The notes: a model not told the origin generated them from the sequence alone. A stretch of 64,000 nucleotides of DNA from an uncultured Bifidobacterium sp. (GCA_964386715.1 CAYLTD010000002.1:109449-173448), one strand, 5' to 3'. Positions 3,619 to 18,099 are shown, numbered from the stretch's first letter. Translations and numbers: made by a program.

Positions 3619-5673
3619 TCAGGGCCGCTGCGGGCCGGGGCCACGCCGGGCCGCCCAGCGGGCGGACAGGCCGGCTGACGCCGACGCCCGACACGGTGGC
3701 GGATCGTCGGGCTGGAACAGCTCGTATCGACCGTCACTGTGTACCGGCACCAACCGCAGGATGTCGGTGGCGGCGTCCCTCAGAGCGCGCGAGGCTCGCG
3801 CCGAGTCGATCACCACGAACCCGACGCACGTCCGTGCCAAAAAGTCGTCGCGGCGGCGCCTGGCGCGGCGCAGCAGCCGCTCCGGCTGTACTGCGCCACT
3901 CGGCGCGCTCAGTTCCACCAGCACCCGCAACACGGGGTTACGCATCGTCTCCTCGCGCCGCCACGTGCTCACGCGGGACAGGTACCCGCCGACGAGCGGC
4001 CGGCCGTGGTGCGTCTGATAGAACTGCGTCGACGCCTGGAAGTCTCCGAGCGAACTGGTGCCGTCGCGAATGCCTGTCGGCAACTCCATGATGGCGCCGG
4101 ACTCGTCGCCCGTCGCGAGCAGGCGGTAGACCTCGGGGACGTCGGCGCGAAAGAGCCGCCGAGGCGCGGGCGTCAGTTCGAGGGCACAGAGCAGGACGAC
4201 CACCGCGGCCGCCGTGCGGCTCCTCGCCGACGCGCTCCGGAGCCACCCGTCCAGCATCCAGCCAAAGAGCAGCGCGAAGCCCAGGCTGGCCACGATGCTG
4301 AACCTGGACGGCGCCCGCGCGAGATCGACGATCGGGACGTACCGCAACAACGCCCACGGGCCGGGGACGAAAGTGTTCACACTGGCGACGTGTACAAAAG
4401 GGCCGAGCGACAACGCCGCAAAGATCGCCGTGAAGCCCAACCAGAGTGCGGGCAGCTGACGACGCGCCGTGGCAATGGCGATCGCGATGATGGCCACTAT
4501 CGAGAAGGAGGCGACAAACTCGGGGAACGCGTCCGGATAGGACGGCATGAACCAACCGGCAGTGAGCTGTCCGAACCAGGGGTTGAGCGGGTTCGGAACC
4601 AGGTAGCCCAGCAGGTCCACGCCTCGAGGACTGCTCCGCCAGAACACGTCAGTCGTCGGCATGCGGCTGAGCAGCATGCGGCGCGCCACGCCGAGCAGCG
4701 GTGGCGCCATGAGCAGCACGCAGGTCCCAACGGCGGTGGCCGCGAGCGGGAGCAGACGACGCAGTCGCTCCGCGGCTCCCGTCACCGGGACCAGCCTCAC
4801 AGGCCGGCGGGACAACGCGCGGAGGAGCCCTCCAACCGTGAGAATCAGCACGGGCGTGTAGATCGGTTCGATGCGGATGCGCAGCGGACCGAGTTCCAGT
4901 CCGGAGTATCCGGCCAGCCGCAACGCCACGATCAGCGTCGCGACCGCCAGCACGCCGTTGAGGAGACGCAGGGCGAGGCGGCGTCCGTCCGTTGCCGCGC
5001 GAACCGCCGGCCGCCGCTCCAGGCACGCGAACTGGGGCGCGAGCACGACAGCCCCGGCCAAAGCGCAGTAGATGCCGAGGTACGCGTCGGAGTAGGACGC
5101 CAGCGCGGTCAGCGCACCGAGCGTGACCGCATCCCGGTGACGCTCACGTTCGAGCACCCGCAGCAGCTGCCACAGGAAGAGCGGAAGACCCGCCGTGGCC
5201 ACCAGACTGGCGTGAGCGACCTGCCGCGCCGTGTGCGTGGGCGCCGCGATGAAGATGACTCCCGCGGCAACCGCCGCAACGGGGCCGATCCCGAGACGCC
5301 GCGCCAGCAGGACGACCGCGAGCCCGCTCGCAGCCGACGCAGCCATCAGCAGCAGGTTGAATGTCCCGACGACGCCGACGGCCCTGAGCAGGGGCAGGCC
5401 CAGGAGCCCGGCCAAGGGCGTGTAATTGTGGAGTGCGAAGTCGGCCCCCTGCGTGAAGGCGAATACGTGGTCAGTGGAGAACGGCAGCCGACCGTGCTCC
5501 ATCAGTTCGTGGTGGAACACCCAGATGTTCCAGACGTACACGCCAAGATCGCCGGCAGGGTCGCCTGTCAGGTGGCTGAAGAGGTGGAGCGGCAGGGGCC
5601 AGACCAGCAGAACAGCCACCGCGCAGACGACCGTCACGATCCCAACGCGTCGGGCCCAGCGCGAGCTCATCAT
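3619..5673 (-). CDS. Polytopic membrane protein, probable GT-C-fold (lipid-linked-sugar) glycosyltransferase, YfhO-like
   Basis: 684 aa with many TM segments; N-terminal loop GDPAGD..VYVWNIW...HNYTPL; RAPSRF; soluble C-terminal domain (ELP...QFYQTHHGRPLVGGYLSR). Confidence 0.6.
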   Translation of the reverse strand: MMSSRWARRVGIVTVVCAVAVLLVWPLPLHLFSHLTGDPAGDLGVYVWNIWVFHHELMEHGRLPFSTDHVFAFTQGADFALHNYTPLAGLLGLPLLRAVGVVGTFNLLLMAASAASGLAVVLLARRLGIGPVAAVAAGVIFIAAPTHTARQVAHASLVATAGLPLFLWQLLRVLERERHRDAVTLGALTALASYSDAYLGIYCALAGAVVLAPQFACLERRPAVRAATDGRRLALRLLNGVLAVATLIVALRLAGYSGLELGPLRIRIEPIYTPVLILTVGGLLRALSRRPVRLVPVTGAAERLRRLLPLAATAVGTCVLLMAPPLLGVARRMLLSRMPTTDVFWRSSPRGVDLLGYLVPNPLNPWFGQLTAGWFMPSYPDAFPEFVASFSIVAIIAIAIATARRQLPALWLGFTAIFAALSLGPFVHVASVNTFVPGPWALLRYVPIVDLARAPSRFSIVASLGFALLFGWMLDGWLRSASARSRTAAAVVVLLCALELTPAPRRLFRADVPEVYRLLATGDESGAIMELPTGIRDGTSSLGDFQASTQFYQTHHGRPLVGGYLSRVSTWRREETMRNPVLRVLVELSAPSGAVQPERLLRRARRRRDDFLARTCVGFVVIDSARASRALRDAATDILRLVPVHSDGRYELFQPDDPPPCRASASAGLSARWAARRGPGPQRP

Positions 5674-5727: not shown

Positions 5728-7983
5728 TCAGAATCGCAACAACCGGGTCAGTTTTATCGCCAGCGACCGGTTGAGGAGGCCGGTCAAGGCACCGCTGTCC
5801 AGCGTATTGCGACCGTCGCTGTAGACGACGAACAGCTCGCTGCCCGGCAGGTACTCCCAGCGGAGGCGGATGCTCGACGTGAGCGTGTGCGCGCTGACGT
5901 TCATCTGCACGAGGCTCGTGATCATCATGCGCGGCGTCGGCGTGAGGATGAACCGGTTGCTGACGATCTGCGCCGAGAAGTCGCCGTAGGGCAGGCGCAC
6001 CCAGTTCAGCGTCAGCGTCGGCTCGACGGCGAACTGCGGCACGATCCCGATGCGGCCGCTGTAGCTGGTCTCCGTGCGCGTGCCGTTGTAGAGGGAGCCG
6101 CGCCCGAATGACACGCGCCCGGACACATACCGCTGCTGCCCGAGCGAATACGAGGTGCGCAGGTTCTGGTACTCGTAGGGCCCGGCCGGCACGATCACGC
6201 CGGGTGAGATGGTGAAGTTGCGCGGCAGACGCTCGTAGGAGCGGACGTAGTCGACGCTGAACTGGTCACTGCTCTGGAAGTTGATGTCGAACGAGCCGCG
6301 CAGGTCGCGGTTCAGCAGCACCGTGGACCGTGCGTCGGTGACGTGGTCGAGGCTGGCCACGTAGCTGAACTTGCGGATCACCCGGCGGTTGCCGGGGCGC
6401 GGCGTGAACCGCAGCTCGGCGAAGTTGCGGCGGAAATCGGTCCGGCGCGCGAACCCGGTCTGCGGCTCGAATCCCTGGCCCACGAGCAGGTGCTCGACGT
6501 TGAAGCCGTACCGGTCGCTCGCGTAGTCCATGGTGCCGCGATAACTCGCGGACCCGTCACTCCGACCGTCGGTGACCGTGCGCGCGTAGTACGCGTTCGC
6601 CGTCAGGTTCGTGAACAGGAAGAAGTTCGCGTCGGCGCCGACCAGCGAGTTGGCGCCGATCCCGTTCTGCGCCACCGATCGGTGCGTGGCGACCATCCCG
6701 ATGTTGCTGCGGCGCAGGACGTCGCGCTTGATGCGCATGGCGGTGAAGTTCGTGGCGACCGCACCCGTGGACGGCTGGTCCTCAGTCTCGATGTTGAGCG
6801 CACCGATGCTGTAGCGGCCGCTTCGTCCGGTGACGCGCCCTCCGCCGAGCACGGGTGTCGGCTGCCCGCGGTTCAGCCCGATCTGCCGGCTGAAGAACAT
6901 CACCGGCACGTCACCCGGCGTGCCGTTGCCGGATCCGACGCCGCCGAACGCGAAGATGCCCTGGCCCTCGAGGAAGAACTCGCGCTTCTCGGGAAAGAAC
7001 AGGTTGAACCGGGTCAGGTTCACCTGCTGCTGGTCTTCCTCGACCTGTGCGAAGTCGGTCCGGTAGGTAAGGTCCGCGATCAGTCCTCGCGTGAGCCCGT
7101 ACTTGAAGTCGAAGCCGCCGTTCGACTGCAGATCGTTCGAGTAGGGCGTCGCGGCCGTCCGGTCCGTCACCGACGCCGCCACGCCGTAGGGCTTCAGTTC
7201 GAGGTTCTTGGCATTGCGAGGGGTCTCGAGACCCACCATGGTGCCCGCGGGTCCCATCTGCCCGATGGCCTGGCCCGTCCCGTAGGACGCGGGCATGAAG
7301 GTGAGATACGAGTATTCGTTCTTCCACCGCACGACGCGCCGGAAGTTGATGCCCCAGGTCTGCGGCCCCGACGAGGGGTAGCGCAGCGACTTGAAGGGGA
7401 TCACCATCTCCAGCGTCCACCCTCCGTCGAAGCGGCCGGTGCGGACGTTCCACACGGTGTTCCAGCTCACGTTGAGCTGGTTGTCGATGATGGCCTGGTC
7501 GCGCAGCGCACCGAGCGGGTTGGTCTGGAAGAAGAAGCCGTTCCGGCGGTCGAGGAAGGTGTCGAAGACGACCGTGAAGCTCTCGTTCTGCGTGATGTTG
7601 TTCTGATCCCGACGCATCTCGGTCATCACGTCGAGTTCCGGATGGCTGTCGTGGCAACGAGCCGCGACGTAGACGTTCCGATCGTCGTAGAACAGCCAGA
7701 CCTCGGTGGGCTCGGTGGCCGGCGCCCCCTCACGCGGTTCCTGCTGGATGAACCCGTCGATGGCTGGGGTGATCTCGTAGATCGACTCGTCGAGGCGGCC
7801 GTCGAGCGTGATCGGCCGCGGGATGCGCACCGCGCGGACCGTGGCCTGGCCGGCGTCGTCCCGGCTCAGCGTCTCGGGAGCCACCGGTGGCGGCACCGCA
7901 GGACCGCGCCCCTGGGCCGACGCAGGCGCGGCGAGGCAGAGCAGGAACAGAATGGTTGGAACCGGCAGAAATCCGACACGCAT
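5728..7983 (-). CDS. DUF5916 / CBM9-like-domain outer-membrane beta-barrel protein
   Basis: Signal peptide from MRVGFLP (ATG 7983); ITLDGRLDE, FQTNPLGALRD, GGWTLEMVIPFKSLRY, DFAQVEEDQQQVNLTRFNLFFPEKREFFLEG; amphipathic beta-strands; C-terminal Phe (RLLRF). Confidence 0.8.
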   Translation of the reverse strand: MRVGFLPVPTILFLLCLAAPASAQGRGPAVPPPVAPETLSRDDAGQATVRAVRIPRPITLDGRLDESIYEITPAIDGFIQQEPREGAPATEPTEVWLFYDDRNVYVAARCHDSHPELDVMTEMRRDQNNITQNESFTVVFDTFLDRRNGFFFQTNPLGALRDQAIIDNQLNVSWNTVWNVRTGRFDGGWTLEMVIPFKSLRYPSSGPQTWGINFRRVVRWKNEYSYLTFMPASYGTGQAIGQMGPAGTMVGLETPRNAKNLELKPYGVAASVTDRTAATPYSNDLQSNGGFDFKYGLTRGLIADLTYRTDFAQVEEDQQQVNLTRFNLFFPEKREFFLEGQGIFAFGGVGSGNGTPGDVPVMFFSRQIGLNRGQPTPVLGGGRVTGRSGRYSIGALNIETEDQPSTGAVATNFTAMRIKRDVLRRSNIGMVATHRSVAQNGIGANSLVGADANFFLFTNLTANAYYARTVTDGRSDGSASYRGTMDYASDRYGFNVEHLLVGQGFEPQTGFARRTDFRRNFAELRFTPRPGNRRVIRKFSYVASLDHVTDARSTVLLNRDLRGSFDINFQSSDQFSVDYVRSYERLPRNFTISPGVIVPAGPYEYQNLRTSYSLGQQRYVSGRVSFGRGSLYNGTRTETSYSGRIGIVPQFAVEPTLTLNWVRLPYGDFSAQIVSNRFILTPTPRMMITSLVQMNVSAHTLTSSIRLRWEYLPGSELFVVYSDGRNTLDSGALTGLLNRSLAIKLTRLLRF

Positions 7984-8106
7984 GTCCGAGGGGGCCGGGG
8001 TAGCGTAACAGATTGCCGCCGCCCGTGCGCCCGGCGCTGACCGACTGCCGAACGGCCGACCTGAATTGATGGGAAGATAACGGCGGATCAGGAGGACCCC
8101 CACCGC

Positions 8107-9333
8107 ATGGGCGCATCGCTGAGGACCGTCGCCACCCGAACCCTCGCCCTGGCCGCGCTGGCCGCCGCACCGGCCGGACAGGCGCCGCCCCCGTCACTGC
8201 CGCCGATTTCACCCACACCCGTTACCGCGGTCGAGACGCTCGTGTCGCGACTCGACCTAGAACGGTACAAGGCCACCATCAAGGGCCTCACGCAGTTCGG
8301 CGACCGTCGCCAGGGCACCGAGCGGAATCGACGAGCCGTCGACTGGATCGAGGCGCAGCTCCGGAGCTACGGCTGTCCCACGGAGCGCCTGCAGTACACC
8401 TACGATCCCCCGCCGCCTCGGGCAGGCCAGGCTCCTGCCTCGCGCCCGCCCGAGCCGCGTATTCCACGCGCCGTTGGCGGTGGCCGGCCCCGCGGCGTTC
8501 GCACGCCCACCGGCGTCAACACCGACCCGCTGAAACAGCCCAACGAGAACCTGCGCCAGCTCAATGCCGAGCCTGCGACCAACGGGCCGCGGGAGCAGGT
8601 CTACTGCACGAAGGTCGGCCGCACGCGCCCCGATGAGATGTACATCGTGAGCGCCCATATGGATGGACACGGCTGGGGCGAAGCGGCCAATGACGACGGG
8701 TCGGGCACGGCGCTCGTCATGGAACTGGCCCGCATCTTCAGCATGCCGGACGTGCAGACCGACCGGACCATCCGCTTCGCCCTCTGGAACAACGAGGAGA
8801 CGGGCCTCGGCGGGGCGTCCGCCTACGTGGCGCAGCGCAGGGCGCTGCAGGGGCGCGAGACCCCGCCGGGTTCGGGGCGGTATCCCGAGCCTCGCTGGCT
8901 GGGGATGATTCAGCACGACATGATGCTGTTCGATCACGGCATGCCCCGGCCCGACGGCACCATCCCGCCCGAGCAGCGGCCCGAAGCCGACGTGAACATC
9001 GAGTTTCAGATGAACGCCAGGCAGACGCTCGGCGCCCAGGCGCTGGCCTGGTTTCTCCACGCGGCGAACGAGAAGTACGCGACCGACTATCCGGCGCAGG
9101 TGGGTCCGCACATGACCAACACGGACTCGACTCCGTTCATGGACGACGTGCCGGCGATCAGCGTGCGCGAGAACGAGCGCGGCGTGCACATCGGCAGCGG
9201 CTGGGACCCGCAGTGGCACCAGCCGACCGACGTCTTCGCGACGTACAGCGACAAGGACTTTCGCCTGGGGCTCAACGCCGCGATGACCACGCTGGGTGCG
9301 GTGGGGGAACTCGTCGGGGCGACGGTCCGGTGA
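8107..9333 (+). CDS. Secreted M28-family metallopeptidase
   Basis: Signal peptide; co-catalytic Zn ligands SAHMDG, ANDDGSGT, NNEETG, HDMML, WHQPTD; AGGAGG upstream. Confidence 0.85.
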   Translation: MGASLRTVATRTLALAALAAAPAGQAPPPSLPPISPTPVTAVETLVSRLDLERYKATIKGLTQFGDRRQGTERNRRAVDWIEAQLRSYGCPTERLQYTYDPPPPRAGQAPASRPPEPRIPRAVGGGRPRGVRTPTGVNTDPLKQPNENLRQLNAEPATNGPREQVYCTKVGRTRPDEMYIVSAHMDGHGWGEAANDDGSGTALVMELARIFSMPDVQTDRTIRFALWNNEETGLGGASAYVAQRRALQGRETPPGSGRYPEPRWLGMIQHDMMLFDHGMPRPDGTIPPEQRPEADVNIEFQMNARQTLGAQALAWFLHAANEKYATDYPAQVGPHMTNTDSTPFMDDVPAISVRENERGVHIGSGWDPQWHQPTDVFATYSDKDFRLGLNAAMTTLGAVGELVGATVR

Positions 9334-9455
9334 CCCGCCACCGGTCGGCGTCGGCAGCCGGCGCCGGCCAATGGGGGCAGGCGAAACACCGGCCAATACG
9401 CACCCGGGGAACCAGTTGGCACGAAAATACGTCAAACGCGCGGAAGGGAGTGCAC

Positions 9456-10850
9456 ATGAAGGCGATACCGATGGTCTGGCTCGCGGCGGCGCTGGTGGCG
9501 CTGGCGGGCAATGCGAGTCCGGCGGCCGCAGCTCCGGAGGTTCCCGGAGAAGTCACCTTCACCAAGGACATTGCGCCGATTCTGCAGCGCAGCTGCCAGA
9601 ACTGCCATCACGTCGACGGCGTCGCGCCAATGTCCCTCGTCACCTACGCCGAGGTCCGGCCGTGGGCGCGCGCCATCAAGACCCGCACGGGCATCGGCCC
9701 CAAGGCCGGCGTCATGCCGCCCTGGTACGTCGAGCGGACCGTCGGCATCCAGAAGTACAAGAACGACCCGTCCCTCAGCGAACCCGAGATCGCCAAGATC
9801 GCGAAGTGGGCCGACACCGGCGCCCGGGAAGGCAACCCCGCCGACCTGCCGCCCGCCCGCACGTTCGACGACGGGAACACCTGGGCCATCGGGCAGCCGG
9901 ACATCGTGGTCCGCAGCCAGAACATCGTGGTCAAGGGCAACGCTCCCGACTGGTGGGGCGAAATCCCCCCGATCGACCTGGGCCTCACGGAGGACCGGTA
10001 CGTCGCCGCGCTGCAGGTCCGCGAGGTCAATGACGTCCCGAGCGCGAAGGACACCGGCCGCGCGACGGTCGGCGGCCGCTATGTCGTCCACCACCTGATC
10101 TGGGCCACCGACAAGGGCGGCGGCGGCGGCACCAATACCCCGTGGCCGGTGCACGAAGTGGGACGCGGTGCGGACTTCTTCCCGCCCGAGGCGGGCCGCC
10201 TGCTCAAGGCGGGCGAGAGAATCGTCTCCGACTCGATTCACCTGCACTCGAATGGCCGCGACACGACGGCGCACCTCGAGATCGGCTTCAAGCTCCATCC
10301 CGTCGGATACAAGCCTACCGTCCGGCAGTCGCAGAGCCGCGGCCTCGGAAACGGGCTCGACATCTCGATCCGGCCGAATGAAGCCAACCAGCAGCTCCAC
10401 GCCTACACCGTGCTGCAGGAGAACACCAAGGTCACCTCGTTCGAGCCGCACCTCCACGCTCCCGGAGCCCGGATGTGCCTCGAGGCGATCTGGGGGATCA
10501 ACATCGAAACGCTGACCTGCGCCGGCTACGACCACAACTGGGTGCGGGGCTACGACTACGCGGACGACGCGGCGCCGCTCCTGCCGAAGGGCACCATCCT
10601 GCACATCGTCGGCTACATGGACAATTCGCCGTCGAACAAGAACGTGCCCGATCCGCGCAACTGGCAGGGCTCGGGCAACCGCTCCGTCGCCAACATGTTC
10701 ATCGACCTGGGTCAGGGCGTCGCCCTCACCGACGAGCAGTTCGAGCAGGAGATGATCAAGCGGCGGCAGTCCACGAAGGGCGACCGCGTACCGGGCTGCC
10801 CGCTCTGTAACACCGTCCAGGTGCCACGCAGCACCAACAACCAGCAGTAG
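9456..10850 (+). CDS. Secreted fusion of a mono-haem cytochrome c and a copper type II (PHM/DBH-like) monooxygenase domain
   Basis: SD GGAAGGGAG then ATG 9456; signal peptide; CQNCH at 9594-9608 and MPPW distal Met; VVHH, IHLH, FEPHLH and NMF in PHM ligand order; C-terminal CPLC. Confidence 0.72.
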   Translation: MKAIPMVWLAAALVALAGNASPAAAAPEVPGEVTFTKDIAPILQRSCQNCHHVDGVAPMSLVTYAEVRPWARAIKTRTGIGPKAGVMPPWYVERTVGIQKYKNDPSLSEPEIAKIAKWADTGAREGNPADLPPARTFDDGNTWAIGQPDIVVRSQNIVVKGNAPDWWGEIPPIDLGLTEDRYVAALQVREVNDVPSAKDTGRATVGGRYVVHHLIWATDKGGGGGTNTPWPVHEVGRGADFFPPEAGRLLKAGERIVSDSIHLHSNGRDTTAHLEIGFKLHPVGYKPTVRQSQSRGLGNGLDISIRPNEANQQLHAYTVLQENTKVTSFEPHLHAPGARMCLEAIWGINIETLTCAGYDHNWVRGYDYADDAAPLLPKGTILHIVGYMDNSPSNKNVPDPRNWQGSGNRSVANMFIDLGQGVALTDEQFEQEMIKRRQSTKGDRVPGCPLCNTVQVPRSTNNQQ

Positions 10851-10852
10851 CG

Positions 10853-11785
10853 ATGGGTGGTGCACCCGTGTTTCGACTACCGTTGCGAGCCGCCGCCGTT
10901 CTTGCCCTGTTCTGCGCAGCCATGTGGCTGCCGGCAGGGGATGCGCGCGCCCAGTCCTACGATCGCGGCCAGCAGGTCTGGCCCGCGTTCGAGGGATGGG
11001 AGAAGAACGAGGACGGCACCTTCAACCTCGTGTTCGGCTACATGAACGACAACTGGGAAGAGGAGCTGGATGTCCCGGTCGGGCCGGACAACAGCTTCTC
11101 GCCCGGGCCCGCAGACCAGGGGCAGCCAACGCACTTCCTGCCGCGGCGGAACCGGTTCATCTTCCGGGTGAAGGTGCCGAAGGATTTCGGCACCAAGGAA
11201 CTGGTCTGGACGCTCAAGACACAGGGTAAGGAGACGAAGGCCTTCGGGTCGCTGCGGCTCGACCTGCTGATCGAGAACGTGGACATCATGTCCGAGACGG
11301 GGGCGCTCGGCGCCGGTTCGAGCAACCCGGAACTGCGCGCCGACAAGGCGCCCGTGGTGAAGATCGAGGGGAGCCGGACGCTCACCGCCAAGGTAGGGCA
11401 GCCCCTGCAGTTGGCCGCGACCGTGACCGACGACGGAATCCCGCGGGTGCGGCCGATCCCGCCCGACCGCGCCAAGCAGGCGATGCGGATTCCACCGTAC
11501 CGGCCGACCGTCAACAAGAACCTTGGACTACATCTGAGCTGGTTCCAGTACCGCGGACCTGGAGTGGTTGAATTCGATCCGCCTCAGGTGAAGGTGTGGG
11601 AAGACACGCGGGTGGGAACCAACTCGCCGTGGGCGCCGGTGTGGGTGCCCCCGCCGCTGCCGTCCGACGGGCGGCATCAGGTGAAGGTCACCTTCAGCGA
11701 GCCTGGCACCTACGTGCTGCGGGCGCGGGCCGACGACGGGGCGCTGACGTCGGATGAGGATGTGACCGTGACCGTCACGCGCTGA
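10853..11785 (+). CDS. Secreted hypothetical protein with C-terminal Ig/PKD-like segment
   Basis: Starts 2 nt after the previous stop; signal peptide ending ARA-QS; ends FSEPGTYVLRARADDG...VTVTVTR. Confidence 0.8.
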   Translation: MGGAPVFRLPLRAAAVLALFCAAMWLPAGDARAQSYDRGQQVWPAFEGWEKNEDGTFNLVFGYMNDNWEEELDVPVGPDNSFSPGPADQGQPTHFLPRRNRFIFRVKVPKDFGTKELVWTLKTQGKETKAFGSLRLDLLIENVDIMSETGALGAGSSNPELRADKAPVVKIEGSRTLTAKVGQPLQLAATVTDDGIPRVRPIPPDRAKQAMRIPPYRPTVNKNLGLHLSWFQYRGPGVVEFDPPQVKVWEDTRVGTNSPWAPVWVPPPLPSDGRHQVKVTFSEPGTYVLRARADDGALTSDEDVTVTVTR

Positions 11786-11813
11786 CGCGTGACGCCGTCG
11801 CGCTACTGAAACG

Positions 11814-11849
11814 GACAGCACGAAGGCCCTGTCGGGTCTTCGTGCTGTC
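11814..11849. terminator. Strong hairpin (probable bidirectional terminator) between convergent genes
   Basis: GACAGCACGAAGGCCC-TGTC-GGGTCTTCGTGCTGTC: 16-bp stem with one G-U pair. Confidence 0.7.
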
Positions 11850-11860
11850 GAACGTTCGTC

Positions 11861-12205
11861 TTACCAGCGCGGCTCGGTGCGTCGGCCGCCACGGCCGCCA
11901 CCGTTCCCGCCGAACCCGCCACCGCGGTTGCCCCCGCCACCGAAGCCGCCCGACCGCTCCTGCGGACGCGCCTCGTTCACGGTCAGGGCGCGCCCACCGA
12001 ACTCACGACCATTCGTCGCGTCGATGGCGGCTTGCGCCTCCTCGTCCGAGCCCATCTCCACGAAGCCGAAGCCCCGTGCGCGGCCCGTGGCCATGTCGCG
12101 CATCACGCGAACCGATTCCACAGTCCCGGACTCGGCGAAGAGCGACTCGAGTTCGCCCTCTGTGGTGTTGTACGAAAGGTTACCGACGTAGAGTTTACGA
12201 CCCAT
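11861..12205 (-). CDS. RRM RNA-binding protein with Gly/Arg-rich tail
   Basis: RNP2 KLYVGNL, RNP1 RGFGFVEM, LTVNEARP, GGFGGGGNRGG tail; SD AGGAG. Confidence 0.95.
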   Translation of the reverse strand: MGRKLYVGNLSYNTTEGELESLFAESGTVESVRVMRDMATGRARGFGFVEMGSDEEAQAAIDATNGREFGGRALTVNEARPQERSGGFGGGGNRGGGFGGNGGGRGGRRTEPRW

Positions 12206-12374: not shown

Positions 12375-12411
12375 AGTGTAGCACAGGAACCGTAAACACA
12401 CGTGCTACAAT
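12375..12411. promoter_or_regulatory. Back-to-back extended -10 promoters for the RRM gene (-) and the cold-shock gene (+)
   Basis: GTGCTACACT on the minus strand (12375-12384) and GTGCTACAAT on the plus strand (12402-12411). Both fit TGnTAnnnT and are 17 bp apart. Confidence 0.55.
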
Positions 12412-12476
12412 CGTTAGCGAGTCTTCCCGGCTCCACGCAGGTCAGCGAGGGGTGGCACGCGGCGGGAAGGCACCTC

Positions 12477-12773
12477 ATGAAAGGGCGTTCGATGCGGTCC
12501 TCCTCGTCTTCGCGCGGAGTGCCTCCCCGGCCGGTCTATTCGGGGAAGGAAACGACAGGCAAGGTCAAGAGCCTGACGCGCGGCCAGGGCTGCGGCATGA
12601 TCAGCGCCGCGGACGGCGACGTCTTCTTCCACAAAGCCGACTTCAAGGGCGAGTTCTTCGACCTCCAGGTTGGCGACAAGGTCGTGTTCGAGCTTCTGAA
12701 CGACACCATCAGCGGCAAGCGCGCGCAGAACGTGCGCGTGGCGCCGGCACGCACCAGGGCCAAGGCTCGCTAG
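12477..12773 (+). CDS. Cold-shock domain protein (atypical RNP1)
   Basis: GKVKSL..GQGCGMI, DVFFHKADF, LQVGDKVVFEL, RAQNVR; SD GGAAGG before ATG 12477. Confidence 0.85.
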   Translation: MKGRSMRSSSSSRGVPPRPVYSGKETTGKVKSLTRGQGCGMISAADGDVFFHKADFKGEFFDLQVGDKVVFELLNDTISGKRAQNVRVAPARTRAKAR

Positions 12774-12959: not shown

Positions 12960-13973
12960 ATGCCGCTCCAGCTCAGCGTCCTGGACCAATCGCCCATCTC
13001 GCAGGGCATGACCACCGGCGACGCGTTGCGCAACAGCATCGACCTGGCGCAGACCGCTGACCGGCTCGGCTACACCAGGTACTGGGTCGCCGAACATCAT
13101 GCGTCCCGGATGCTGGCGTGCGCGAGCCCGGAAGCGCTGATCGGCCCGATTGCCGCCGCCACCTCGCACATCCGCGTGGGCAGCGGCGGTGTGATGCTGC
13201 CGCACTACAGCCCGCTCAAGGTCGCCGAAACCTTCGGGATGCTCGCCGCCCTCTACCCGTCGCGCATCGACCTGGCTGTGGGCCGGGCTCCTGGCAGTGA
13301 TCCGCTGACCGCTTTTGCCCTGCAGCGGGATCGACGGCACGCCGCACCCGACGATTTCCCTGAACAGCTGGCAGAACTGCTCGCCTACACGCGCGACGGC
13401 CTGCCGGCCGGCCATCGGTTCGCACGCATCGCCGCCGTGCCTCCGCAAGCCGAGCGGCCCGAGCCCTGGCTGCTGGGCTCCTCTCCGCAGAGTGGCGTCT
13501 GGGCGGCCGAGATGGGGCTGCCCTATGCCTTTGCCGATTTCATCAGCCCGGGAGGCGCCGTCGTGGCCCAGCGGTACGCCGGCTCGTTCGTGCCCTCTCC
13601 GGCGCTCGACCGGCCGCGCATCGTCGTGGCCGCATGGGTACTGTGCGGGGAGACCGATGCCGAGGCCGAGCGTCTGGCCTCGAGTTCGCGGATGGCCTTT
13701 GCCCACTTCCTGAGCGGCAATCTGATCCAGGTACCGCCAGTAGACACCGCCCTCGCATTCCTCGAGCAGAATGCGCATTTGCGCGAAGGGATCACGCGCC
13801 GGCGGCGTGCCATCGTCGGTTCACCGTCGAACGTGCGCGAGAGGGTGGACGCCCTGGCCTCGGAATATGGCGCCACCGAAGTGATGATCGTGACCATCAC
13901 CTACGACCATGCCGCGCGCCGACGCTCGTATGAACTCCTGGCCGAGGCATTCGCACTCCAGCCGCCGAGCTGA
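12960..13973 (+). CDS. LLM-class flavin-dependent oxidoreductase (luciferase-like monooxygenase)
   Basis: LSVLDQSP, RYWVAEHH, IRVGSGGVMLPHYSPLKVAE, RIDLAVGRAPG, PWLLGSS. Confidence 0.93.
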   Translation: MPLQLSVLDQSPISQGMTTGDALRNSIDLAQTADRLGYTRYWVAEHHASRMLACASPEALIGPIAAATSHIRVGSGGVMLPHYSPLKVAETFGMLAALYPSRIDLAVGRAPGSDPLTAFALQRDRRHAAPDDFPEQLAELLAYTRDGLPAGHRFARIAAVPPQAERPEPWLLGSSPQSGVWAAEMGLPYAFADFISPGGAVVAQRYAGSFVPSPALDRPRIVVAAWVLCGETDAEAERLASSSRMAFAHFLSGNLIQVPPVDTALAFLEQNAHLREGITRRRRAIVGSPSNVRERVDALASEYGATEVMIVTITYDHAARRRSYELLAEAFALQPPS

Positions 13974-16136
13974 TCAGCCCGACGTCGACGGCCCGGCCTC
14001 GTGCTCGTCCTGCTCGTCCGAGGCCTGGCGATGGCTCCAGGTCATGAGCGCGTCCTGCGCGCTGAAGGGCGGCTCGCCCGAAGCAGGAACGATTTTCTGA
14101 TACTTGCCCTCGCGCAGCACGTACGCACGCTGGTTGTCGCGCAGGTAGGCCTCGAGAACCACATCCCGCACGTGCCGGACGAGCCCGGTGTCCCGAATGC
14201 GGCAGAGCGTCTCGACCCGTCGGTCCAGGTTGCGCTCCATGAGATCCGCGCTGCCGATGTACAGCTCCTCGTCACCTCCATTGCGAAACCAGAAGATGCG
14301 TGAGTGTTCGAGGAAGCGGCCAACGATGGAGCGCACGCGGATGTGGTCGCTGATGCCGGGGATGCCGGGACGCAGGACGCACATGCCCCGGACGATCAGG
14401 TCGATCTGGACACCCGCGCGTGATGCACTGTAAAGGGCGCGGATCACCGCAGTGTCGGTGAGCCCGTTCACCTTCATGACGATGTGGGCCGTCTCGCCGC
14501 GAGTGGCGTGGGCCATCTCACGCTCGATGCGCGACAACAGCTCACGGCGCACACCGTTGGGCGCGACGAGCAGTTGCCGGAAGTTCCTGCGGCGTGAGTA
14601 GCCGGTCAGCGCGTTGAAGACGTCCGACACGTCGTCCACGATCGCGGGATCGGCGGTGAACAGCCCGAGGTCCGTGTACACCTGTGCCGTGCTGCGGTTG
14701 TAGTTGCCGGTACCGATGTGCACGTAACGCTGGATCCCGTACGGCTCGCGCCGGACCACCAGGCACAGCTTGGCGTGGGTCTTCAGCGCTTCCACGCCGT
14801 AGACGACGTGCACACCCGCGTCCTCCAGGCGCGTCGCCCATGCGATGTTGTTGCGCTCGTCGAAGCGTGCCTTCAGTTCCACCAGCACGGCCACCTGCTT
14901 GCCGGCCTCTGCTGCTTCGATCAGCAGCTCGATGAGCGGCGAGTTCTCGCCGATCCGGTACAGCGTCATCTTGATGGCCAGCACGTGGGGGTCGGTGGCC
15001 GCGTCGCGCACGAACGACTCCACGGCCCCGAACGAGTCGAACGGATGGTGCACGAGGATGTCTTCGGTGCGGATGTCGTCGAAGACGACCGAGCCGCGCC
15101 CCTCGGTGGGCCAGGTGGTGTGCGGGACCAGGGGCGGGTACTTGAGGCCGGCGAGGGGCAGCTTGTACAGGGCCGCCCAGTCGCAGAACGCCAGGCGCTC
15201 CCGGGTGCGCATCACCACATCGTCGTCCACGTCCAGGTTCTCCACGAGGAGTTCGAGGAGGCGGCGCGGCATGGTGTCCTCGACGTGCAGCAGCGAGGGC
15301 GGTCCGTCGCGCAGTTCGCGCAGGCTGCGGTGCACCTCCTCCATCAGGTCCTCGCCTGCGTTGCGCACGTCGATGTCGCTGTCCCGCACGACGCGAAACA
15401 GGTGCGCGCTGACCACCTCGACGCCTGGAAAGAGGTCGCCCAGGTGGGTGCGCACGATGTCCTCGAGGAAGGCGAAGCGGTGCGGCGCCTGACCCGCGCG
15501 GCCTGGCAGCGGGACGAAGCGTGGCAGCAACGCCGGGATCTTGAGGCGCGCCACGCGCAACCGCCGGTTGTGACGCACCAGTACGGCGATGTTGGTGCTG
15601 CGGTTCGAGATCTGCGGGAAGGGGTGGCCCGGATCGATCGCGAGCGGGGTGAGCAGGGGATAGACGTCGGCGGCAAAGTACGAACTAAGGTACGTGCGAG
15701 CGGCCTCGTCGTAGTCGTCGGGCTCGACGAACTCCACGCCGACCTTGGCGAGTGCCGGGCGGAGTTCCTCGTTCCAGCACGTGGCCTGGTTCTTCAGCAG
15801 AACGGACAGGCGGCGCCTCACCGCGCTGAGCTGCTGACCCACGGTGAGCCCATCGGGCCCGGCGTGCTCCTGCCCGGCGCGCTGCCAGCGGCGCAGCGAG
15901 GCCAGGCGCACCATGCAGAATTCGTCAAGGTTGGAGCCCACGATGGCGAGGAACCTGACACGCTCGAGGAGAGGGTGCGATCGGTCCCATGCCTGATCGA
16001 GAACGCGTTGGTGGAAATCGAGGGCACTCAGCTCACGATTGCCGTAGAGCGCCGTGTCGTCGAGGTTGGGTACTGCGTCGCTGCCGGCGTCGTGTGCTGG
16101 GGTGGGCACTCGCAGGGTCTGCGTCCGTGTGGCCAT
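13974..16136 (-). CDS. ppk1: Polyphosphate kinase 1
   Basis: NRELSALDFHQRVL, SNLDEFCMVR, DPGHPFPQISN, HHPFDSF, IKMTLYR, ELKARFDERNNI, KTHAK, HIGTGNYN, GRFLEHSRI, SADLMERNLDRRVE. ATG 16136 chosen as start. Confidence 0.96.
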   Translation of the reverse strand: MATRTQTLRVPTPAHDAGSDAVPNLDDTALYGNRELSALDFHQRVLDQAWDRSHPLLERVRFLAIVGSNLDEFCMVRLASLRRWQRAGQEHAGPDGLTVGQQLSAVRRRLSVLLKNQATCWNEELRPALAKVGVEFVEPDDYDEAARTYLSSYFAADVYPLLTPLAIDPGHPFPQISNRSTNIAVLVRHNRRLRVARLKIPALLPRFVPLPGRAGQAPHRFAFLEDIVRTHLGDLFPGVEVVSAHLFRVVRDSDIDVRNAGEDLMEEVHRSLRELRDGPPSLLHVEDTMPRRLLELLVENLDVDDDVVMRTRERLAFCDWAALYKLPLAGLKYPPLVPHTTWPTEGRGSVVFDDIRTEDILVHHPFDSFGAVESFVRDAATDPHVLAIKMTLYRIGENSPLIELLIEAAEAGKQVAVLVELKARFDERNNIAWATRLEDAGVHVVYGVEALKTHAKLCLVVRREPYGIQRYVHIGTGNYNRSTAQVYTDLGLFTADPAIVDDVSDVFNALTGYSRRRNFRQLLVAPNGVRRELLSRIEREMAHATRGETAHIVMKVNGLTDTAVIRALYSASRAGVQIDLIVRGMCVLRPGIPGISDHIRVRSIVGRFLEHSRIFWFRNGGDEELYIGSADLMERNLDRRVETLCRIRDTGLVRHVRDVVLEAYLRDNQRAYVLREGKYQKIVPASGEPPFSAQDALMTWSHRQASDEQDEHEAGPSTSG

Positions 16137-16254
16137 ACCGCTGGGACTCCATACAGGATGCGTGCCGAGTGGCTGAGGTCCACCGACGCCGGTCGTGCGG
16201 CACGGCCGACGGCTGGACCGTTCGGGCGGACGGATCTTTGCAGCCACCCCGCCG

Positions 16255-18099
16255 ATGCAACCAGGCGACGGGGAAGCTTGCCAGACGGGCCGTGGGTACC
16301 CGCGCCCGCAACTGCAGCGTGAGCGCTGGCAATCGCTGAACGGCGAATGGGACGCCGCACTCGACCACGACGGGCGATGGGACGAACCGGACCACGTGCC
16401 CTGGGATCGGATCATCCTGGTGCCGTTCTCGCCCGAGGTGGAACGAAGCGGCATCGCCGAACCGGGCTTCTTTCAGGCGGTGTGGTACCGGCGTACGGTC
16501 CCGTGTCCCACCCTCGCTCCCGACGACCGCTGGATCCTGCACTTCGGGGCGGTGGACTATCGGGCCACCATCTGGGCCGACGGTCGTGTGCTGGGCACGC
16601 ACGACGGGGGCTATACCCCCTTTTCGATCGATCTGACCGCGGCAGTGCCCGCCGACGGCTCCGCGATCACGCTGGTGGTGCGCGCCGAGGACGACCCCCA
16701 CGACCTTGCAAAGCCCCGTGGCAAGCAGGACTGGCAGCTCGATCCGCACTCGATTTGGTACCCGCGCACGAGCGGCATCTGGCAGACGGTCTGGACCGAG
16801 GTTGTGCCCGCGACGCGCATCGCCTCGCTGCGATGGACGCCGAACCTGGAGCGCTGGGAGATCGGGCTCGAAGCCCTGATCCACGGCGACTCGCGGGAGC
16901 GCCTGCGGATGAGGGTGCACCTGCGTGCCGGCGACGCCCTCATTGCGGACGACACGGTCACCGTGATCGCCGGCGAGGTGCACCGGCGCATTGCCCTCTC
17001 GGATCCCGGCATCGACGACTACCGCAACGAACTCCTCTGGAGCCCTGAGAAGCCGACGCTGATCGAGGCCGAGATCGAGCTGTGGGGTGACCGCGGCGAG
17101 CGGCTCGATCGCGTCCGCAGCTACACGGCCATCCGCTCGGTGGCCGCACAGCGTGACCGGTTCATGCTGAACGGCCGACCATACCCGATGCGCATGGTGC
17201 TCGATCAGGGGTACTGGCCGGGAGCCGGGCTCACTGCGCCAGACGACGATGCGCTGCGACGCGACGTCGAACTGGCCAAGGCCATGGGCTTCAACGGCGT
17301 CCGCAAGCACCAGAAGATCGAGGATCCGCGCTACCTGTACTGGGCCGACAGGCTCGGTTTGCTCGTCTGGGCGGAAATGCCCAGTGCGTATCGCTTCACC
17401 AAGGTATCGGTGGAGCGCGTGACGCGCGAGTGGATGGACGCGATAGCGCGCGACTACAGCCATCCGTCGGTCATCGCGTGGGTGCCGTTCAACGAGTCGT
17501 GGGGGGTGCCCAATTTGCCCGACAGCGCGCGCGAGCGCCACTACGTGCAGGCGCTCTACCACCTCACGAAAACCCTCGATCCCACGAGGCCCGTCATCGG
17601 CAACGACGGGTGGGAGAGCGTGGCCACCGACATGATTGGCATCCACGACTACGACGACGACCCGGGAAGGATGGCGCGTCGATACCAGGCCGACGAGGTC
17701 CTGCCGCGGCTGTTCCGACGCGAGCGGCCCGGCGGGCGCCTGCTCGTGCTGCACGAACAGCCCGCCACCGATCAGCCGATCGTGCTGTCGGAGTTCGGGG
17801 GCATTGCCTATTCGCCCGACCCCGCCACGTGGGGCTACACGCGATGCCAGGCGCCGGACGAACTCGAGGAGCGTTACACCGCCCTGCTCGACGTGGTTCG
17901 GAGCCTGCCCGTCCTCTGCGGGTTCTGCTACACGCAGTTCAGCGATACCTACCAGGAGGCCAACGGGCTCCTGTACGCCGACCGGACGCCCAAGTTCCCG
18001 CTGGCGTCCATCGCGCGCGCGACCCGGGGCCTGCGCGAGAGCCGCACGCTGGTGGTGGACCCCATCGAGGCTGCGCGCGGCTCGGAGACCGAGCGGTGA
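16255..18099 (+). CDS. Glycoside hydrolase family 2 (beta-galactosidase/beta-glucuronidase-like)
   Basis: YPRPQL, LHFGAVDY, PRGKQ, GFNGVRKHQK, acid/base FNESWG, nucleophile SEFGG, FCYTQ. Start uncertain (16195 or 16255). Confidence 0.9.
   Translation: MQPGDGEACQTGRGYPRPQLQRERWQSLNGEWDAALDHDGRWDEPDHVPWDRIILVPFSPEVERSGIAEPGFFQAVWYRRTVPCPTLAPDDRWILHFGAVDYRATIWADGRVLGTHDGGYTPFSIDLTAAVPADGSAITLVVRAEDDPHDLAKPRGKQDWQLDPHSIWYPRTSGIWQTVWTEVVPATRIASLRWTPNLERWEIGLEALIHGDSRERLRMRVHLRAGDALIADDTVTVIAGEVHRRIALSDPGIDDYRNELLWSPEKPTLIEAEIELWGDRGERLDRVRSYTAIRSVAAQRDRFMLNGRPYPMRMVLDQGYWPGAGLTAPDDDALRRDVELAKAMGFNGVRKHQKIEDPRYLYWADRLGLLVWAEMPSAYRFTKVSVERVTREWMDAIARDYSHPSVIAWVPFNESWGVPNLPDSARERHYVQALYHLTKTLDPTRPVIGNDGWESVATDMIGIHDYDDDPGRMARRYQADEVLPRLFRRERPGGRLLVLHEQPATDQPIVLSEFGGIAYSPDPATWGYTRCQAPDELEERYTALLDVVRSLPVLCGFCYTQFSDTYQEANGLLYADRTPKFPLASIARATRGLRESRTLVVDPIEAARGSETER

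Follow-up and report, generated by a model that had tools for sequence, protein, structure and literature searches.

A two-gene cassette for a candidate cytochrome-fused two-copper enzyme of a remote bacterial PHM/DBH branch

Could a bacterial copper monooxygenase of the PHM type run on electrons from a cytochrome of its own, in place of ascorbate? The question is raised by two adjacent genes in a 64,000-nucleotide stretch of DNA from an uncultured Bifidobacterium sp. (GCA_964386715.1 CAYLTD010000002.1:109449-173448; hereafter the window). One encodes a secreted protein that joins a c-type cytochrome domain to the copper-ligand motifs of PHM and dopamine beta-hydroxylase (DBH), referred to below as the enzyme, and the other encodes a second secreted protein, referred to as the partner. 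The textbook examples of non-coupled two-copper monooxygenases are PHM and DBH, whose characterised members are, to our knowledge, eukaryotic and use ascorbate. A first-pass annotation of the window had proposed that the enzyme is a self-reducing PHM-like monooxygenase that might act on peptides together with an M28 peptidase encoded upstream and a dedicated downstream partner. We found that the enzyme is very probably a two-copper protein of the PHM/DBH superfamily with a fused cytochrome and an obligatory partner. By analogy with PHM and DBH, the product of the two-gene cassette (9456-10850 and 10853-11785) is probably a periplasmic enzyme of two subunits that belongs to a remote bacterial branch of that superfamily.

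Fold and copper-ligand register of the enzyme

We modelled the enzyme with AlphaFold2 (AF2) from 52 homologues (predicted local distance difference test (pLDDT) 71; predicted template-modelling (TM) score 0.69) and obtained three N-terminal helices, which make up the cytochrome domain, followed by two all-beta domains. When this model was compared with the PDB by Foldseek, the top match was human DBH (4zel_B; E 1.3e-5, probability 1.0), and about 25 PHM entries, including 1sdw and 1phm, ranked next (probability 1.0, ~330 columns). Target-normalised TM scores against DBH and PHM were ~0.45-0.50, and matches to cupins and vicilins had probabilities below 0.5. By this comparison, the enzyme has the two-domain beta-sandwich architecture of the PHM/DBH family, as seen in a model of pLDDT 71. 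Pfam models provided a bridge to the same family. Scanning 29 diverse members one by one (34-81% identical), we found that PF03712 (Cu2_monoox_C) was matched by five and PF01082 (Cu2_monooxygen) by four. One distant member (P0321) matched PF01082 and PF03712 in the correct N-to-C order at sub-threshold scores, the PF01082 match of another (P0266) was likewise sub-threshold, and a third (P0299) was the sole relative to pass the gathering score of PF03712, if narrowly (23.6 versus 23 bits). The PHM/DBH-type fold suggested at first pass was thus borne out by both the Foldseek ranking and the ordered matches of distant members.

Copper ligands were placed by aligning the family profile with hhalign to rat PHMcc (PAM residues 45-356), a template verified to be identical to PDB 4e4z_A; the entry for the H107A mutant differed at the expected position. 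One co-linear alignment placed all six ligands (E-values 0.004-0.012). H212 and H213 of the enzyme aligned with PHM H107 and H108, and H262 with H172, which are the ligands of the CuH site; H332 and H334 aligned with H242 and H244, and M414 with M314, which are the ligands of the CuM site. In global mode, alignment of the C-terminal domain with hhalign gave nothing useful. The register of the three motifs was consistent with both the fold search and the positions of the Pfam domains.

These positions were near-invariant among 264 near-full-length members aligned to the family hidden Markov model (HMM), down to ~35% identity. In the CuH-type triad, H212 and H213 were kept in all 264 members and H262 in 263, and in the CuM-type triad H332 was kept in all 264, H334 in 263 and M414 in 262. 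The enzyme is thus predicted to carry the CuH-type and CuM-type ligand sets of the PHM/DBH family, in the HH...H and HxH...M order that had been noticed from the motifs. Conservation of the cytochrome domain was just as strict, with C47, C50 and H51 kept in 261-262 members and M87 in every one. Attachment of haem c requires protein export, and the CQNCH motif, the invariant M87-P-P and the signal peptide together fit a class I-type monohaem c with predicted haem attachment and, probably, His/Met axial ligation. The fused haem-c module is therefore both present and conserved, as first proposed. Pfam cytochrome models (Cytochrome_CBB3, Haem_bd and PccH) matched the enzyme and its relatives weakly, below threshold in the enzyme (15 bits) and at up to E 1.7e-5 in relatives.

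Whereas the haem motif, the distal Met and the six copper ligands were retained in 261-264 of the 264 members, other residues listed beside them in the first-pass annotation proved to be specific to subfamilies. H264, the second His of IHLH, was present in 173 members and aligns with PHM G174. The C-terminal CPLC, which had been considered as an additional redox or metal site, was found in ~128 members, all of them closer relatives; being limited to one subfamily, it would lie outside the core mechanism. H233, H315 and H360 were each present in about half of the members. A further residue, H383, which has no counterpart among the PHM ligands, was kept in 253. C341 and C355 were each Cys in 169 members, their replacements were near-identical in number (T 86 and S 86), and in a smaller diverse alignment the two were lost together. 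The matching counts and the joint loss suggest that they probably form a subfamily-specific disulfide in the CuM-type domain.

The enzyme has more than 7,600 homologous clusters at 90% identity, mostly from Acidobacteriota and all labelled either 'hypothetical' or 'mono/diheme cytochrome c family protein'. When representatives at 50% identity were searched exhaustively with the enzyme, 539 clusters matched at E <= 1e-30, and at least 584 stretches of the family were found in species-representative genomes, again mostly of Acidobacteriota. In both the homologue search and the genome scan, the closest relatives came from metagenome-assembled genomes (MAGs) of Vicinamibacterales (Acidobacteriota); the G+C content of the window is ~69%, and we read the pair as that of a soil Acidobacterium. 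Identity to the enzyme was 72-90% among the top 120 matches listed, including a Bryobacteraceae protein (P0095) at 78%. Since Bryobacteraceae and the Vicinamibacterales-like window represent distant acidobacterial classes, identity at this level would imply either very strong constraint or horizontal transfer. Several single genomes contained two or three paralogous pairs, as seen among the 80 best matches alone (L022/L026/L069 in MAG SMAG_U6528; L057/L071, ~12 kb apart on contig CAWFCS010000006.1; L008/L058; L009/L025; and L006/L033), which suggests functional diversification. A paralogue search found no second copy of the pair within the window.

The partner subunit

We examined the gene order around the enzyme in 83 loci, comprising three exact-protein look-ups and the 80 best from species-representative genomes (of the at least 584 stretches). 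A partner homologue stood beside the enzyme in every one of the 79 loci that extended far enough, and in ~74 of these it lay directly downstream on the same strand. The partner, which carries no annotation, has ~8,000 homologous clusters. In addition, more than 100 relatives were natural enzyme-partner fusions, in three topologies. Among 119 relatives of at least 600 residues, the whole partner was N-terminal in 81 and C-terminal in at least four by automatic assignment (~9 by inspection), while ~25 were split, with the first domain of the partner before the cytochrome and the second after the CuM-type domain. Global MAFFT alignment of whole fusions with the partner was poor, and excised partner modules were aligned instead. 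Given adjacency in 79 of 79 loci and the many natural fusions, the downstream protein is an obligatory partner, and a dedicated one as the first-pass annotation had supposed. One of the three fusion topologies is in effect a domain insertion, and together they point to a tight 1:1 complex, in which both termini of the enzyme would lie close to the junction between the two partner domains.

Where the partner module is fused N-terminally, as in P0278, P0419 and P0441, its last stretch ahead of the cytochrome domain (residues ~245-262) is a conserved segment, GNFGYHCCWTN, which includes His-Cys-Cys-Trp; the unfused partner of the window does not have this segment. At the fusion junction it might serve as an additional metal or redox element.

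The AF2 model of the partner (pLDDT 84) consists of two tandem Ig-like beta-sandwiches. Scans against Pfam and NCBIfam matched nothing, and Foldseek returned generic Ig-type proteins only, such as titin, KIT, SbsC and intimin, with no PAL, DOMON or copper chaperone among the top 50 matches. The invariant residues of the partner are Gly, Pro, Asp, Asn, Gln, Arg and aromatics, and include no His, Cys or Met, so that a catalytic or metal-binding role appears unlikely. We rejected the suggestion that the partner is a lyase analogous to PAL, as it has neither the six-bladed beta-propeller of PAL nor invariant His, Cys or Met residues with which to bind Zn. A role resembling that of a lytic polysaccharide monooxygenase (LPMO) was also rejected, as the signal peptide ends in ARA immediately before QS, leaving Gln rather than His at the mature N terminus, and no His is invariant. 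Our best guess is that the partner plays a structural, substrate-shaping or substrate-recruiting role.

Gene organisation and genomic neighbourhood

Direct translation confirmed the open reading frames (ORFs), signal peptides and motifs of the first-pass annotation at their positions (Table 1). The enzyme ATG is preceded by a Shine-Dalgarno sequence (GGAAGGGAG) as ribosome-binding site, and the partner ATG at 10853 follows the TAG stop of the enzyme (10848-10850) by 2 nucleotides (nt). The strong hairpin reported to close the unit was also upheld: the 75-nt intergenic region that contains it has a dG of -43.6 kcal/mol (z -5.7), and none of 200 shuffles folded equally well. It has no T-run, and was therefore missed by a simple terminator scan. 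Positioned between convergent genes, it could terminate both, and it is likely to be a bidirectional terminator that closes the two-gene unit. A simple promoter scan of the window region found no promoter.

Table 1. Coordinates of the cassette, its sequence features and its neighbours, in nucleotides from the first letter of the window.
Feature	Position	Strand	Remarks
M20 peptidase	1641-2804
PTPS_related-type polytopic membrane protein	3619-5673
DUF5916 / CBM9-like protein	5728-8103	-	Mechanical GTG start, 3 nt from M28 start
M28 gene, 408 aa	8107..9333	+	M28 aminopeptidase family; adjoins the pair here, but not conserved as part of the system
Enzyme gene, 464 aa (ATG as in homologues)	9456..10850	+	ORF translation; signal peptide, c-type cytochrome domain, PHM/DBH-like pair of CuH-type and CuM-type beta-sandwiches
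Sec signal peptide of enzyme, ~residues 1-26	9456..9533	+	MKAIPMVWLAAALVALAGNASPAAAA; hydrophobic core, then Ala-rich cleavage region
Monohaem c-type cytochrome domain, ~residues 30-125	9543..9830	+	CQNCH 9594-9608; axial-Met motif MPP(W) 9714-9722
N-terminal beta-sandwich, equivalent of PHM CuH domain	9873..10310	+	H212-H213 at 10089-10094; H262 at 10239-10241
C-terminal beta-sandwich, equivalent of PHM CuM domain	10323..10730	+	H332-x-H334 at 10449-10457; M414 at 10695-10697
VVHH	10083-10094	+	Direct translation of enzyme gene
IHLH	10236-10247	+	Direct translation of enzyme gene
FEPHLH	10440-10457	+	Direct translation of enzyme gene
NMF	10692-10700	+	Direct translation of enzyme gene
C341 and C355	10476-10478, 10518-10520	+	Likely disulfide in CuM-type domain (family alignment)
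CPLC, C-terminal	10797..10808	+	Subfamily-specific, ~128/264 members; possibly a Cu(I)-handling or redox CxxC
Partner gene, 310 aa	10853..11785	+	Sec-type signal peptide 10853-10951, then two tandem Ig-like beta-sandwich domains
Strong hairpin	11813..11850	.	16-bp stem; between convergent partner gene and RRM-protein gene
Glycine-rich RRM RNA-binding protein	11861-12205
Cold-shock-domain protein	12402-12773
Luciferase-like monooxygenase	12960-13973
Polyphosphate kinase 1	13974-16454

The gene upstream of the pair encodes a genuine M28 peptidase: it matches Pfam PF04389 at 82.6 bits (cut-off 21.3), and the first three of its metal-ligand motifs (AHMDGH, NDDGSG and NEETG) can be aligned with M28 enzymes of solved structure. 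Its proposed membership of the system did not stand. Whereas the operon survey found enzyme and partner together in 79 of 79 loci, an M28 homologue lay within 6 kb of the pair in a single locus of 83, that of the closest relative (L002), where it is downstream on the opposite strand. Co-location is therefore not conserved, and the M28 peptidase is an unrelated neighbour. Genes for polyphosphate kinase, the luciferase-like protein, the cold-shock-domain protein, M28 and DUF5916 recur around the pair in L002 in rearranged order, so the M28 gene appears to adjoin the pair through inherited synteny and not through any link in function. In the window, the stop codon of M28 and the enzyme ATG are 122 nt apart. 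Immediately 3' of this stop codon is a GC-rich hairpin (9341-9369; ~13 bp, 3-nt loop) that could terminate M28 apart from the pair; the whole 136-nt stretch around it folds no better than shuffles (z -0.45).

On the other side of M28, the signal peptide of the DUF5916 protein (MRVGFLPVPTILFLLCLAAPASAQG) begins at residue 41, and its real start is probably near 7983. DUF5916 homologues occur near the pair in the window and in 5 of the 83 other loci; in L058 one separates the two genes, and in L048 one follows closely downstream. The commonest neighbour was a CarboxypepD_reg / TonB-dependent-receptor-like outer-membrane protein of ~1,000 residues, found in 16 of 84 loci and directly adjacent in ~13 (L005, L019, L022, L024, L032, L033, L057, L061, L063, L065, L067, L080 and L083). 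These adjoining genes are either on the same strand as the pair or divergent from it, and on one metagenomic contig an AraC regulator was also seen upstream. This adjacency is a possible hint that the substrates of some paralogues are imported. Clustering of all flanking ORFs gave no other conserved neighbour of the pair.

Proposed mechanism and alternative functions

PHM (the catalytic core of PAM; 1phm, 1sdw and 4e4z) and the enzyme have in common the two beta-sandwich domains and, in the same order and register, the HH...H ligands of CuH and the HxH...M ligands of CuM; PHM is secreted or lumenal, and the enzyme has a signal peptide. In contrast to PHM, to which it is ~10% identical, the enzyme falls below Pfam thresholds, does not conserve the peptidyl-Gly-binding residues R240, N316 and Y318, carries a fused c-type cytochrome where PHM uses soluble ascorbate, pairs with an obligatory Ig-like subunit rather than with PAL, and is bacterial and periplasmic. 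The copper ligand pattern is likewise shared with DBH, tyramine beta-monooxygenase and MOXD1 (4zel), DBH being the best Foldseek match (E 1.3e-5). The extra N-terminal DOMON beta-sandwich of DBH offers a loose parallel to the N-terminally fused Ig-like partner of some relatives, although the partner has no DOMON match among its top 50 structural matches and the enzyme has no dimerisation domain. Electrons come from ascorbate in the animal enzymes, where it is regenerated by cytochrome b561 in the DBH type, whereas here a haem c domain would supply them.

A tethered or dedicated cytochrome that feeds single electrons to copper is known from NirK fusions and from cellobiose dehydrogenase (CDH) acting with LPMO. 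Three-domain, cytochrome-c-fused NirK and the CDH cytochrome domain with LPMO resemble the enzyme by analogy, in the sequence from cytochrome to electron-transfer copper to catalytic copper, but their copper folds are unrelated (cupredoxin and the LPMO histidine brace), their chemistry is different and no homology was detected. When the enzyme was compared with PDB sequences by phmmer and by profile, the sole matches were weak ones to the haem motif of PccH-type and hydrazine-synthase-type monohaem c (4rlr and 5c2v), and the distant members P0299 and P0321 matched nothing relevant there. Those haem domains share the motif (E)VTFxKDIxPIxxxxCxxCH with the cytochrome domain of the window, but the matches are weak (E 0.02-0.1 over ~25-40 residues) and the proteins are not fusions to a PHM module. 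The system is assigned to the structural superfamily of PHM and DBH but differs from them in electron supply, subunit composition and cellular setting.

On balance we favour a full haem-driven, ascorbate-independent monooxygenase mechanism, drawn up by analogy with PHM and DBH. In this mechanism, the haem would be supplied with electrons by periplasmic carriers of the respiratory chain, such as soluble cytochrome c, bc1 or ACIII, and would reduce the CuH-type copper, in place of the ascorbate of the animal enzymes. Bacteria generally lack ascorbate, which would make a built-in cytochrome a sensible replacement. CuH would then hand one electron over the interdomain cleft to the CuM-type copper, where O2 would be activated, probably as Cu(II)-superoxo, to hydroxylate a substrate C-H bond (R-H + O2 + 2e- + 2H+ -> R-OH + H2O). 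The substrate, probably not a Gly-extended peptide, would sit in the interdomain cleft, perhaps aided by the Ig-like partner. The partner would bind 1:1, probably as a clamp close to both termini of the enzyme, and would either shape the substrate site or recruit the substrate.

Several points weigh against this view. Neither PF01082 nor PF03712 gives any match to the enzyme, and no other copper-domain model of Pfam or NCBIfam matches it at threshold; it is therefore better described as a remote branch of the superfamily than as a member of the Pfam family. Because a single sequence served as template, the hhalign statistics were weak, with a probability of 4-9%. Confidence in the AF2 model is no more than moderate (pLDDT 71, and below 50 in the M414 loop). 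Clustering of flanking ORFs revealed no copper-loading, regulatory or substrate-pathway gene conserved nearby. Finally, copper binding, the direction of electron flow and catalytic activity are all argued from the analogy with PHM and DBH.

Three other functions were considered. The peptide-processing route envisaged at first pass, in which M28 would trim peptides, the enzyme would hydroxylate a C-terminal glycine and a PAL-like partner would release the amide and glyoxylate, now seems scarcely credible. Although the M28 gene is directly upstream on the same strand, and PHM, together with DBH, is the closest characterised fold, the peptidase accompanies the pair in one locus of 83, there in a different place and orientation, and is set apart from it in the window by a 122-nt gap with a hairpin. 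The partner, built of two Ig-like sandwiches and no beta-propeller, offers no invariant His, Cys or Met as ligands of Zn. Moreover, the residues with which PHM binds the glycine carboxylate and backbone are replaced in the family, R240 by E330 (E/Q in 259 of 264), N316 by I416 (I/Q/F/L) and Y318 by L418 (L/W), so that amidation of Gly-extended peptides by the enzyme is unlikely. Three observations speak against peptide amidation: these residues are lost, nothing equivalent to PAL is present, and the peptidase is not conserved. We also consider it quite improbable that the proteins serve non-catalytic handling of periplasmic copper (storage, chaperoning or Cu(II)-to-Cu(I) reduction), with the haem reducing copper and the CxxC tail passing Cu(I) on. 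Such a function would account for the CPLC tail, the two His-rich sites and the want of conserved substrate-pathway neighbours, but CPLC is absent from about half of the family, genes of the cop or cus type are not conserved near the pair, and a near-invariant full PHM-type ligand set, accompanied by numerous further polar residues that are invariant, typically marks an enzyme. The two or three paralogous pairs in several genomes would, in addition, suggest diversification of substrates.

An alternative that we think unlikely, but that deserves real weight, is that the same two-copper, haem-c scaffold does not hydroxylate C-H bonds but acts in electron transfer, as an oxidase or reductase. Such a protein might reduce O2, H2O2, superoxide or a nitrogen oxide in the periplasm with electrons from cytochrome c, or might oxidise a small substrate and pass electrons from copper through haem to the respiratory chain. 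A tethered cytochrome c usually wires periplasmic copper redox enzymes to respiration, as in cytochrome-c-fused NirK, and no substrate-pathway genes are conserved nearby; the unusually high identity among the top 120 matches listed (72-90%, and 78% for Bryobacteraceae) would suit a small, universal substrate. On the other hand, the CuM-type His2Met set, which is the O2-activating site in PHM and DBH, occurs in no fewer than 262 of the 264 members, and the obligatory Ig-like partner and the TonB-receptor-like gene adjacent in ~13 of 84 loci fit an organic, imported substrate better. We know of no characterised enzyme with the PHM/DBH fold and ligand set that is not a monooxygenase, and a haem-driven monooxygenase is the function that we prefer.

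A bolder proposal is that the enzyme is the founding example of a large unannotated class, namely an ascorbate-independent two-copper monooxygenase with a built-in cytochrome and an obligatory Ig-like subunit, wired directly to the respiratory chain in the periplasm of soil Acidobacteriota and acting on a non-peptide substrate that is perhaps imported through TonB-dependent receptors. This we put forward tentatively, with our doubts slightly the stronger. In full-text literature searches of incomplete coverage we found no description of a bacterial cytochrome-fused PHM-like enzyme, and an earlier description elsewhere is possible. A 2025 review of PHM and DBM (PMC12164859) describes no such enzyme; the open-to-closed transition of DBH and PHM that it discusses belongs to the long-standing debate on how electrons reach CuH and pass on to CuM.

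If the proposed mechanism is true, a bacterial branch with a tethered haem donor would be a convenient system in which to study the entry of electrons into CuH and their crossing to CuM. An obligatory Ig-like subunit, fused to the enzyme in three topologies, would be unusual for this class of enzymes and has no known counterpart. The cassette would also establish two protein families for which Pfam and NCBIfam offer no model at present, enabling their annotation. For the Acidobacteriota, which are among the most abundant and least-characterised soil phyla, it would represent a new type of oxygenase in the periplasm. Should it indeed found a class of its own, it would be an overlooked oxygenase in the turnover of carbon or nitrogen in soil, and would offer a natural model of electron delivery to the CuH site.

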